Positions 35,277 through 38,152 of a stretch of DNA of 64,000 bases are shown here, piece after piece; position 1 is the first letter of the stretch, and each line of letters begins with the position of its first letter. The DNA lies in NCBI GenBank assembly GCA_947502835.1, contig CANNBJ010000005.1:40429-104428 (forward strand). The letters run 5' to 3'. Made by a program: the position numbers and the translations under genes. The notes under the pieces were generated by a model. The model was not told the origin of the DNA and ran no database searches. It saw only the letters and a program-made list of their open reading frames with translations. The DNA is from Bdellovibrionales bacterium. Its GTDB lineage: Bacteria > Bdellovibrionota > UBA1018 > CAIMNF01.

Positions 35277-35304
35277 TTGAAGCAGCATGACATTAAACTA
35301 TAAT
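35277..35304 (+). promoter_or_regulatory. Sigma70-like promoter (TTGAAG-16-TATAAT) overlapping the first ATGs of the 949-aa ORF
   Basis: -35 TTGAAG at 35277-35282, 16-nt spacer, -10 TATAAT at 35299-35304. Implies a TSS near 35311 and translation from the downstream ATG at 35354 (MIRILPC…). Confidence 0.45.
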
Positions 35305-38152
35305 GATGAAGGCACTGGGTTTCCTGCATTGGCTTCTTCTCTGCACCAAACGAATGATCCGTATTCTACCTTGCTTGGTATTCTCCTTGTTTTTTGCACA
35401 TCCCTCTTACAGCCAAACAAAACACTTAGACGACGAGGGGATGTATCAAGCGCTTCATTTAGCTCGTGATCCCGAGCTAAGCATAGAGCAACGAATGCAG
35501 GTTGCCCAAGTGGGACTTGATTACATAAGAGCTCGCGTTACCGCTGCAAACAACTTCAAGACCGTGGACGAACTTCTCAAGGCGATGAGGAAGGATCCAA
35601 GCATTAATGAGAAGATTCTTCATTCACGGAAAGACGATCTTTGGAAAGTCCTGACTGAATTCAATGACCTAACCAAGTCTCTTGCTCTCGAACCAGAAAT
35701 CAAGGCTTGCAGAAAATGGGGAGATTCAGGACTTACAAATCAAGTCATCCTTGGAATGGCAGGCTTATCCCATTGTACCGAGGGTACCTGTTGCGAAAGA
35801 AATATTCTGTGGATCGACAAAAACAACCCAAAGGGTCCTCCCGTTGCAAATAGCGTCCCCTCCTATGCTTACAGCAAAAATGTTGTCGATCTCGTAAATG
35901 TCGGAAACACAATTATGATTCGGACCGAGGAGGGATACGGCAAAGATATTTTTCATCCAACACTTGAGTTGGCTCGAAAGATGAACCCTGAGTTCAAAAG
36001 CGACAAAGAAGCCGGTACTGTAGTAGCGGCGGCTCAACTTCGTGGTGAGGTTTACGTGCGTGCCATTCAAAATGAAATCCGCAATAAATTCACCCTCGAA
36101 ATGAAGTACCGAGATCAATCAGGCGACGCCAATGCATTTCTTAAAGAGATGATTGATCAAGATTGCGCTCACTGCACTCCTGAAATGAAGGAAAAAATCA
36201 AAATCCGCGTAAGCGGACTCTATAATAAAGACAAAAAGGAAGGGCGAGTCACAAAGAGGCCGGCGCGTAAGGTGGTGGAGGATTTGTGCAAAAAGCTTTT
36301 AGAGAACCGATATAATTTCACTGATTTTGATCAAACTCAAGAAGGTAAAGCCTGGCTTAAAGGAATAGAAAAGTACAGAGGAGGTTTGACGGTATCAGGA
36401 GAAACTGCAGGAAAATATAACCGTGCTGTGTATGAATACCAACAGGCGAAAAATGAATTCGATAACCTGCGTAAATCCATTCTAACCTCGATCGTAAGGG
36501 AAGGCGGGGATGGTCTCCTCCTTCTGACAAAAACAATGAGTCAGTTGGATAACCAGGTACCGCTAAAGGTTAATCTTGGATGTGGCCAAACCTCCGAAAG
36601 ACAGGACCATGATTTGCCAGCCGATGAGGCACTCGTGAGCCCTGCAGTGAGTGAAGCTATCAATGAAACCACTGCCTACGCAAAAAAGCTCAATGATACG
36701 ATTCATCCCGGAAAACTCGATCACGAAACGATTAACTCAGACCTGGAAGGTCTTACCCAAATTGCTTCCACACAGGTGGGAGAAGCACTTCTCAGCCTTG
36801 GTCACAAACAACTTGGATCCTATGCCTGTCGTATCTTCGAATCGATTGGTAAAAGAAAGGACGCCGAAAAAAATCTGGATAACGCGATTCTTTGGGGCGG
36901 AATGATCGGAGGAACCCTTTTGGCCATCGGGACCGCTGGAATGGCGGCACCCTTTGTCTATGGTGGCCTTGCCGTTGGAATTGCGATCAATGCAGGAACG
37001 GCAGTTTATGAATGGGACCGTGCAGGCGAAGCGAAGGCACTGAGCGAAGTCTATCGGAATGCAATGATCGGAAAGGGAGGAAATGACACCTATCTTTTGG
37101 AGATGACCCAAAAAGAGTTCTTAGCGTTTAAGGAGCATCGCCTCAATGCCATCCTCTCGGGTGTTGCCACGGTTGCTGATGTAACGATGGTCATCGTGAA
37201 AGCAGCCCAGGCCGGACGTGGAATTGCAGAGATCAATCAGGAGTTAAAGAGCCTTGAAAAAGGTGGAGAATCCGCCTTCAGCGAGCACATCAATCCCGGT
37301 GTAAGACAAAGCGAGGTTGATCATCTTCTAGTTGAGCTTACGGAGTTTGAATCAGGATCGAACCTTGCTGCCAAGACAAAAAAGCCAAGCGTAATCGCAA
37401 ACCTAGAGGCGAGAAAAACCTCGATCTTAAACAAGGTCGAAGAATTCGGAGGGGCGGAGAATTACCTTCAGTACCTGAAGTCCAAAGGGCTTACCCAGGA
37501 AGCAGCGGAGGCGGAGCGAATTCTCTCCAAGATCACTGCCGCCAAAGCGAACAAGCCAAGCCCGATCGCAAACACGGAAGGGGGGAAAGTCTCAACGTTG
37601 AAACAGGTGGAAGAGGGTAACATCACAGCTACAACTACCGCTAAATCCACCGCTTCAGGATTCATAATTGGGCCGACCAAACCATTAACACTTGTGCGCG
37701 GTTCTCCTCATATTGATATACGGAGTTATATTGATCATGGTTTCCATGGCGAGATTGTGGGGGGAGCGAAGCTTGAGGGGGGAATGCATGGGTATGGGCC
37801 AGCCAAAGAATTCCAGAGGAACTATTTTAAAAAGACAGGAGAGGTGATCATGATGACCGAACCCGATCCGAATGGATTGATTGACATGTATCTCCCAAGA
37901 AATGCGGTTGGAAAACAGTGGAATCAACTAAAAAAAGTGAAGATCAATGGAGTGACGTATGGAGTCAAAACCATCTTGCCCCAAGGCTTTGAACATGTGG
38001 ATATGATTAAGGCAAAAAAATATATCGAAAGCCTTCCAGTGAAGAAAACCAAAGATGGTCAGATCTATAAAGAAGGGCGCTACAAGGGGATTCGCTTCAA
38101 GAGGTACATTGACACCAATGGGGATGCGTCGTTGTTCCCTGTCCGCGATTAA
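35303..38152 (+). CDS. Large secreted multi-domain toxin-like protein: helical N-region, central glycine-zipper hydrophobic segment, C-terminal ~170-aa His-rich putative nuclease-like (EndoU-like?) domain
   Basis: Signal peptide (…[18 protein letters not shown]). Gly-zipper segment [40 protein letters not shown] at ~aa 530-575. C-terminal [31 protein letters not shown]…[10 protein letters not shown]…ASLFPV. Confidence 0.75.

Follow-up and report, generated by a model that had tools for sequence, protein, structure and literature searches.

Polymorphic toxins with EndoU tips are already known. The described EndoU-tip toxins use a limited number of catalogued carriers (CdiA, RHS, LXG, MafB, MuF, and others) together with an immunity gene. 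In MafB of Neisseria, a type I signal peptide is followed by a conserved N-terminal domain several hundred residues long, a short conserved junction motif, and an exchangeable C-terminus, which may be an EndoU domain. MafB(MGI-1, NEM8013) carries an EndoU RNase; the secretion of MafB depends on the signal peptide and begins with the Sec pathway, and its route across the outer membrane is not known (PMC4287609). In this study, a 64-kb stretch of the contig CANNBJ010000005.1 (hereafter, the window) was analyzed. An open reading frame (ORF) at 35303-38152 of the plus strand, stop codon included, encodes a protein of 949 aa, just as the original prediction had stated in coordinates and length. I found that this window protein is probably a Sec-exported modular toxin of the polymorphic-toxin kind with a divergent EndoU tip. 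The identical protein has been recorded from NCBI, ENA, and Logan assemblies, where it is unnamed and forms a singleton cluster.

The closest known layout is that of MafB. The window protein resembles MafB in its signal peptide, conserved N-terminal region, junction motif, and exchangeable C-terminus, and both toxins are encoded in compositionally distinct islands. In contrast to MafB, the carrier of the window protein has no Pfam match to DUF1020 (PF06255) and holds a glycine-zipper hydrophobic hairpin. Neither a MafA-like lipoprotein gene upstream nor a gene for MafI or another immunity protein downstream is present, the locus does not include an array of spare C-terminal cassettes, and the host is Bdellovibrio-like instead of Neisseria. 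Hence, none of the three marks of the MafB family (the PF06255 N-domain, a mafA neighbor, and a downstream mafI) was found; the neighbors are tRNA-Val genes, an ORF6N fragment, and a YceI-like gene. New here are the carrier family, its glycine-zipper element beside the site of exchange, the absence of immunity genes from every locus seen, and the lineage.

The modular nature of the protein emerged from its few relatives. Among approximately 5.8 billion clusters, the carrier is found in three proteins: the window protein itself, a fragment (P0002), and a 954-aa protein (P0003). P0002 is 82-84% identical to the window protein throughout. For P0003, the identity amounts to 50% across aa 47 to about 655, with 63-77% across aa 541-660 and 63% across aa 631-660; the rest, starting at aa 661, is at 10-27%, which is the noise level of a forced alignment. 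The last 300 aa or so of P0003 are unrelated to the window protein, and no Pfam, PDB, or plasmid match was found for this alternative C-terminus. Judging from where the alignment breaks, the junction motif at aa 640-653 is the likely point of C-terminal cassette exchange. When aa 780-949 were searched exhaustively by HMMER against 1.84 billion representatives, P0002 and P0004 were the only proteins found. The P0004 tip is 36% identical to the window domain (phmmer E=8.5e-15); P0004 is an N-terminally open fragment, and its upstream 150 residues are unrelated to the window protein. Thus, in this very small sample, one carrier occurs with two tips and one tip occurs on two carriers, which follows the logic of polymorphic toxins. 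The breakpoint between a conserved trafficking region and a variable tip, by which polymorphic toxin systems are recognized, lies between the window protein and P0003, and P0004 shares the tip. The original prediction had likened the protein to polymorphic toxins, and the swapped C-terminus of P0003 and the reuse of the tip behind another N-terminus in P0004 agree with it. In total, the family comprises 2 full-length proteins and 2 fragments in approximately 15 billion proteins. No further relatives were found in genome, metagenome, and viral contig scans with carrier or domain alignments, the carrier not having been given an exhaustive profile search, and no paralogue exists within the window. 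The variable linker between the junction motif and the tip contains two repeats, of which 15 of the 25 residues are identical (AKxxKPSxIANxExxKxSxLxxVEE). The pair is kept in P0002 and was not reported by BLAST; it may be a binding or processing element.

The EndoU hypothesis was set in advance from the original prediction and then tested. For the isolated C-terminal domain, Pfam gave a single family, PF14436 (EndoU_bacteria), with E=0.011 (already corrected for 24,736 Pfam models) and 16.6 bits over profile positions 5-128 of 129, while the whole protein gives E=0.76 against the same family. As a reference, 13 EndoU domains that all pass PF14436 were collected: the tip of a Klebsiella IncC RHS protein, a Rhizobium plasmid ORF, a Streptococcus phage wall protein, a Gordonia phage MuF protein, and nine IMG/VR loci. 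A motif bait served only to retrieve these real sequences. When the profile of the three domain sequences was compared by hhalign with 4 verified EndoU domains, the score was 30.2 (P=1.9e-4), and none of 300 column shuffles reached it (12.1 +/- 2.5, maximum 23.3). With all 13 domains, the score was 33.0 (P=4.4e-5, 69% probability, z=8), and none of 250 shuffles reached it (11.8 +/- 2.6, maximum 25.0). The similarity to verified PF14436 members is therefore statistically significant, and its growth as the reference widens from 4 to 13 is what is expected of true homology. The P0004 domain alone gives a 91% probability against the EndoU profile (P=1e-6). Thus, the window domain is linked to EndoU by a chain leading through P0004.

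The alignment also places the motifs in order. VKTILPQGF is paired with K[ST]EFPxxW, and SLFPV is paired with the terminal [ST]x[FY]P. In the N-terminal half alone, EGGMHGY is paired with GGGHR at a collinear position (P=0.012, a score attained by 2 of 200 shuffles). It is known that the Tox-EndoU signature consists of H, H, [SNT], and [SNT], corresponding to the XendoU pairs H162/T278 and H178/S229 (PMC3482391), and that the EndoU histidines are 12-18 residues apart and an aromatic-Pro motif lies in the last strand (PMC7297114). The window domain has all of these features, with the spacing H-17-H-60-KT-56-FP, and its signature residues are invariant among the three domain sequences, down to 36% identity. 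The sole Pfam match, the hhalign result, and the invariant collinear signature bear out the EndoU-like domain that had been proposed. The proposal of a compact His-rich domain stood in one part only: the motifs HGFHGE, GGMHGY, VKTILP, and SLFPV are present, but 5 His in 154 aa do not make the domain His-rich, and it is basic instead (26 K+R vs. 17 D+E). In summary, the sequence comparisons give good support to a homology between the tip and the EndoU superfamily, which is very probable. The putative RNase tip extends the EndoU family to a branch too divergent for the curated Pfam threshold.

Which EndoU proteins does the domain resemble? The active site of CdiA-CT(STECO31) (PDB 5HKQ, clade III) is composed of H187, H204, K261, T262, and H321 of a Phe-His-Pro motif (PMC9086364, PMC7297114). 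Using these published residue numbers, the order of the active-site residues is alike, and the spacings are 17/57/60 in 5HKQ and 17/60/56 in the window domain, in agreement with the EndoU-type motif spacing that had been noticed. The low-confidence model of the window domain (strand-helix-3 strands-helix-4 strands) resembles the listed order of 5HKQ (2 strands-helix-4-helix-3). On the other hand, HMMER against the PDB detected no similarity between 5HKQ and the window domain; RHS-type EndoU sequences and profiles did not reach 5HKQ by this search either. 5HKQ also differs in being delivered by the type V CdiB/CdiA system with a cytoplasm-entry domain and in being neutralized by CdiI, whereas the window toxin has none of these. 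The short EndoU_bacteria tips of RHS, MuF, and cell-wall-anchored proteins (e.g., the Klebsiella IncC RHS protein WP_014342219 with MafI-family immunity) have collinear motifs in common with the window domain, namely H-x3-G-[DE], GG-H, K-[ST]-x-[FL]-P-x-x-[WF], and [ST]-x-[FY]-P, and are the members behind the hhalign similarity to the 13-domain reference. In contrast, they lack the insertion of about 48-55 aa that the window domain has between the second His and the Lys motif, their carriers (RHS, MuF) are unrelated, and an immunity gene lies directly downstream of them. This insertion before the Lys places the window domain with the long, 5HKQ-like layout. The features of the toxin gene and its surroundings are listed in Table 1.

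Table 1. Features of the candidate toxin gene and its immediate surroundings (positions in the window; aa numbering from the first ATG)
Feature	Positions	Strand	Basis
Whole ORF, candidate Sec-exported polymorphic toxin	35303..38152	+	translation and database record
Promoter-like TTGAAG-16-TATAAT, 10/12 matches	35277..35304	+	consensus match only
Probable start M18 and type I signal peptide, aa 18-37, then Q	35354..35413	+	read from sequence
Conserved N-terminal carrier, aa 47-655, predicted all-helical, 8 conserved cysteines	35441..37267	+	50% identity to P0003
Glycine-zipper hydrophobic hairpin, aa 530-570, two Gly/Ala-rich helices split by P550	36890..37012	+	hydropathy and alignment
Third hydrophobic or amphipathic helix, aa 613-638	37139..37216	+	Kyte-Doolittle maximum 1.86; conserved in P0002 and P0003
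Junction motif, aa 640-653, last conserved stretch before the variable C-terminus	37220..37261	+	identity drop vs. P0003
Variable linker, aa 656-794, common to P0002 only, two 25-aa repeats	37268..37684	+	
Linker repeat 1, aa 690-714	37370..37444	+	by eye in translation
Linker repeat 2, aa 747-771	37541..37615	+	by eye in translation
C-terminal EndoU-like RNase domain (putative), aa 795-949; Pfam match covers aa 810-947	37685..38149	+	Pfam and profile-profile comparison
H812-x3-G816-E817 (DHGFHGE), putative first catalytic His	37736..37753	+	invariant in 3; verified EndoU has H-I-L-D-G-[DE]
G826-G827-M-H829 (GGxH), putative second catalytic His, 17 after H812	37778..37789	+	invariant in 3; aligns with EndoU GGH
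K889-T890-x-x-P893 (VKTILP), putative catalytic Lys/Thr pair	37967..37981	+	invariant in 3; aligns with K[ST]EFP
S943-L-F945-P946, C-terminal strand motif	38129..38140	+	S and P invariant in 3; aligns with [ST]-x-[FYH]-P
Two tRNA-Val genes (cac, tac), directly upstream of the toxin gene	34260-34334, 34421-34496	+	
ORF6N-domain gene fragment, convergent with the toxin gene	38235..38468	-	profile match

The carrier (aa 1-660) has no sequence match in Pfam, NCBIfam, PHROGs, or the PDB. The AlphaFold2 model of aa 37-660 has a pLDDT of 40.6 and is unusable; the long helical region that had been described is seen as secondary structure of this low-confidence model and not beyond that. The glycine zipper fared better. 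In aa 527-569 or so, which are Gly/Ala-rich and moderately hydrophobic (Kyte-Doolittle means over 19 residues of 1.45-1.58), there is a small-xxx-small ladder of G533-G537-A541-A545-A549, then P550, and then A557-A561-G565, so that the original prediction is upheld here. The hairpin shows 53-77% identity to P0003, the highest in the protein. None of the Pfam glycine-zipper models (Gly-zipper_Omp / YMGG / OmpA, and Rick_17kDa_Anti) was listed up to E=10. No known export or trafficking module (T5SS FHA/VENN, T6SS PAAR/RHS, T7SS LXG/WXG, MafB_N, PVC, or MuF) was found in aa 1-660, where a Sec-type signal peptide is the only export feature. In colicin- and pyocin-type bacteriocins and in diphtheria toxin with its T domain, a targeting or translocation part precedes a C-terminal enzyme cargo, and a hydrophobic helical hairpin is buried in it; this is a functional analogy. 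By analogy with such translocation-domain hairpins of colicins and diphtheria toxin, the carrier may serve for targeting and for membrane insertion or translocation. These toxins, however, have no sequence similarity and no demonstrated structural similarity to the window protein, and colicins are not exported via Sec and have immunity and lysis genes.

The N-terminus of the toxin has two hydrophobic stretches. Since the promoter-like site overlaps the first ATG, M18 (35354) is probably the likelier start codon, although such sites are no more numerous in this region than in shuffled sequence. The signal peptides were assessed by eye. A signal peptide had been suggested, and aa 18-37 fit one of type I. 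P0003 was called from an internal Met; an upstream GTG start yields an equivalent signal peptide (MKPFILLLTLSLFCSVSSFG, then S). Since the signal peptide is kept in position but not in sequence between the window protein and P0003, export of the toxin is likely to be real. Within the N-terminal 510 residues, 8 cysteines are common to the window protein and P0003, and the C-terminal domain is free of cysteine; conserved carrier cysteines and a Cys-free tip are consistent with folding outside the cytoplasm and with export. Thus, the toxin would be exported via the Sec pathway. A lipoprotein signal was also considered and rejected, because the residues before C24 (I-L-P) and those before the Cys of P0003 (S-L-F) do not fit a lipobox.

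Is there an immunity gene? Between 38153 and 39587, no plus-strand ORF longer than 73 aa was found; the longer ones overlap the YceI gene. The same holds for the relatives. At the P0003 locus (L001), there is no immunity gene downstream on the same strand, and the next gene is on the opposite strand. At the P0004 locus (L083), there is none on the same strand, and a 64-aa membrane ORF and a Bor lipoprotein gene lie on the opposite strand. The 64-aa ORF (983-1177 of the minus strand) has two predicted membrane helices and ends 11 nucleotides after the P0004 stop codon; the Lambda_Bor lipoprotein gene follows it. The absence of a cognate immunity gene, which had been stated for the window, thus holds at all three loci. 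The reference EndoU tips differ in this respect, being followed at once on the same strand by an immunity gene or a small ORF. For example, in IncC plasmids of Klebsiella and E. coli (L085, 870-1142; L087, 837-1109), a widespread RHS protein ends in a short EndoU_bacteria tip and a MafI-family immunity gene comes next. In pZX30-192k, only the last part of the EndoU tip remains beside an IS26 copy, and the immunity gene persists as an orphan. Toxins that lack an immunity gene have been interpreted as host-directed instead of kin-directed (PMC3482391). Since three loci have no immunity gene and the host is Bdellovibrio-like, the target is likelier to be non-kin (prey bacteria or a eukaryotic host) than siblings. 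An unlinked immunity gene may lie elsewhere in the genome, as the negative covers the 64-kb window only.

From these observations, the following mechanism can be proposed, in which I infer the export, the RNase activity, the toxicity, the role of the zipper, and the target, as well as the delivery route. The signal peptide (aa 18-37) would take the toxin across the inner membrane of the producer via Sec, and the Cys-containing helical carrier would fold oxidatively outside the cytoplasm. The toxin would then be released or exposed on the surface. As in colicins and diphtheria toxin, the glycine-zipper hairpin might insert into the target membrane and pass the C-terminal cargo. This exchangeable cargo would begin after the junction motif and consist of the linker with its two 25-aa repeats and the basic domain of 155 aa. 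The tip would be an EndoU RNase of the BECR fold, in which H812, H829, K889/T890, and S943 are retained. By homology, it is predicted to cleave target-cell RNA independently of metal, leaving 2',3'-cyclic phosphate ends; the substrate might be tRNA anticodon loops, as for CdiA-CT(STECO31). A more specific version, which I regard as unlikely when taken as a whole, is that of a self-delivering, immunity-less polymorphic toxin of a putative Bdellovibrio-like predator. It would be exported via Sec and released into or onto the prey, the carrier would insert into the prey cytoplasmic membrane, and the exchangeable cargo would be an EndoU-type RNase here and another domain of 300 aa in P0003.

Several points weigh against the toxin reading. 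A cognate immunity gene, by which polymorphic toxin systems are defined, does not follow on the same strand in any of the 3 loci. With just two full-length members, the word polymorphic stands for one swap and one shared tip. No secretion-system genes were found nearby in family scans of the window, the Bdellovibrio-like placement of the host leans on one RpoC comparison, and, the carrier model being poor, the translocation function is read from sequence features. In addition, a Sec substrate with a conserved hydrophobic hairpin of 45 aa might just be anchored by it in the inner membrane of the producer. This leads to another explanation, namely a resident envelope protein, in which the hairpin (perhaps with the helix of aa 613-638) is an inner-membrane anchor and the EndoU-like domain is a periplasmic or surface scavenging RNase. 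Such an enzyme would digest prey or environmental RNA for nucleotides and would need no immunity protein, in line with the three loci, and it would fit with the hairpin being the most conserved part of the protein and with the lack of releasing-peptidase as well as secretion-system domains in the family scans. I nevertheless consider it improbable, because the replacement of the C-terminus in P0003 and the reuse of the tip in P0004 are what toxin cassettes, unlike housekeeping enzymes, typically show. Moreover, the hairpin is of borderline hydrophobicity for a membrane helix and includes an Asp in P0003, and the gene is compositionally foreign and extremely rare. Alternatively, the glycine-zipper region itself may be a pore-forming or depolarizing toxin like EsxX, CdzC/D, or VacA, since glycine-zipper motifs are active in several membrane-depolarizing bacterial toxins (PMC12744356). 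The C-terminus would then be a targeting or receptor module whose EndoU likeness is vestigial or non-catalytic. Bacteriocins and phage tail proteins often end in variable receptor-binding domains, and the conservation of the zipper would be accounted for. However, the four signature positions that stay invariant at 36% identity point to selection for catalysis, the domain is basic as expected of an RNA-binding enzyme, and a membrane immunity protein, which a pore former too would normally require, is not encoded next to the gene. A zipper toxin of this kind is therefore quite unlikely, and the pore-forming alternative of the original prediction gained no support.

The EndoU assignment of the tip is open to objections of its own. 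The score of the window domain stays below the PF14436 gathering threshold of 25.3 bits, so that it is not a formal member of the family; of the Pfam assignment proposed originally, the choice of family stood and the curated cut-off was not reached. The P0004 domain alone gets no Pfam match, the window domain alone is weak against the EndoU profile (P=0.089), HMMER against the PDB found no solved structure for the domain by sequence, and the AlphaFold model had a low confidence (pLDDT 56) and gave noise in fold searches. The sub-threshold score, the weak match of the window domain alone, the missing PDB match, and the noise in the fold searches would fit a C-terminal domain that is no EndoU homologue, the profile matches being due to chance and a few short motifs and the function being unrelated to RNA cleavage. 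That possibility is very slight, since the hypothesis had been fixed beforehand, the hhalign score exceeds every one of the 300 and 250 column shuffles, and the signal rises with the number of reference sequences and is strong for P0004 alone. Both halves of the domain align in the right order as well, and the spacing matches that of 5HKQ (PMC9086364). A modular toxin with an EndoU tip remains the preferred reading.

As for the genomic setting, the rpoC gene (30047-34189) and the two tRNA-Val genes precede the toxin gene and are followed by a spacer of 806 nucleotides. The tRNA-Val pair is a possible insertion site for foreign DNA. The toxin gene has a GC content of 0.466 and a GC3 of 0.475, both the lowest among the 28 window ORFs that reach 250 aa; the others have a GC of 0.51-0.60 and a GC3 of 0.54-0.69. 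The convergent ORF downstream matches positions 2-28 of the 86 positions of ORF6N (KilA-N-like), with E=4.3e-6 and 27.4 bits against a cut-off of 27.8. This partial match agrees with the decayed ORF6N gene on the opposite strand that had been recognized originally, and the fragment looks like a mobile-element remnant and not like an immunity gene. Such an adjoining remnant is consistent with the toxin gene lying in acquired DNA. Together with the lowest GC and GC3 and the adjoining tRNA genes, it suggests that the toxin gene was horizontally acquired. No att-type direct repeat was found downstream of the toxin gene; the 3′ end of tRNA-Val recurs once, inverted and upstream (34925-34947), so the boundaries of the island cannot be defined as att-type. 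The ORF6N fragment is followed by a YceI-like gene (38484-39257 of the minus strand). The RpoC of the host shares 81% identity with its counterpart in "Bdellovibrionales bacterium RIFOXYD1_FULL_55_31" and at most about 70% with all others retrieved. Judged by RpoC as a single marker, the host is an uncultured Bdellovibrio-like bacterium.

The spacer (34497-35302) has peculiarities of its own. It contains two imperfect copies of a unit of approximately 200-240 nucleotides with 77% identity, at about 34600-34840 (copy A) and 34908-35115 (copy B). Copy B starts with the inverted tRNA-Val 3′ end including CCA (21 of 23 bases), and copy A has a partial one at 34627-34643. On the minus strand, each unit would finish with a 3′ terminus resembling that of a tRNA. 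For copy B, the RNA of this strand folds much better than its shuffles (z=-4.8). No Rfam family matches the units, which could be a tRNA-derived repeat or small RNA, or integration scars. A long hairpin with 38-nucleotide arms (84% complementary) and a 50-nucleotide loop lies at 34493-34618, beginning in the last bases of tRNA-Val(tac); against Rfam, it gave only sub-threshold plant miRNA models, which are meaningless. Farther downstream, three genes in a row at 39587-42757 of the plus strand have no family assignment and encode proteins of 185, 458, and 408 aa. The 185-aa protein has a signal peptide and a C-terminal membrane helix, and the 408-aa protein has YHEFSH and a weak match to DUF2268, a predicted Zn protease family (E=0.004). 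At 49642-55875 of the minus strand, a 2078-aa protein has an N-terminal Fn3 domain, several Ig-like domains (Big_1 and HYDIN/ASH-type), and a C-terminal propeller of RCC1 repeats (PF25390, 310 bits). This large protein probably serves at the surface or in adhesion.

What would these results mean for the family and its host? If the carrier is a self-contained translocation device, it would offer a compact system for studying how a soluble enzyme passes across a target membrane. If the toxin reading is true, this would be the first example of cassette-swapping toxins in a Bdellovibrio-like lineage, whose weapons against prey are poorly known. If it is true that the toxin acts from predator to prey, there would be a new carrier family and a polymorphic-toxin principle that works without the need of kin immunity.

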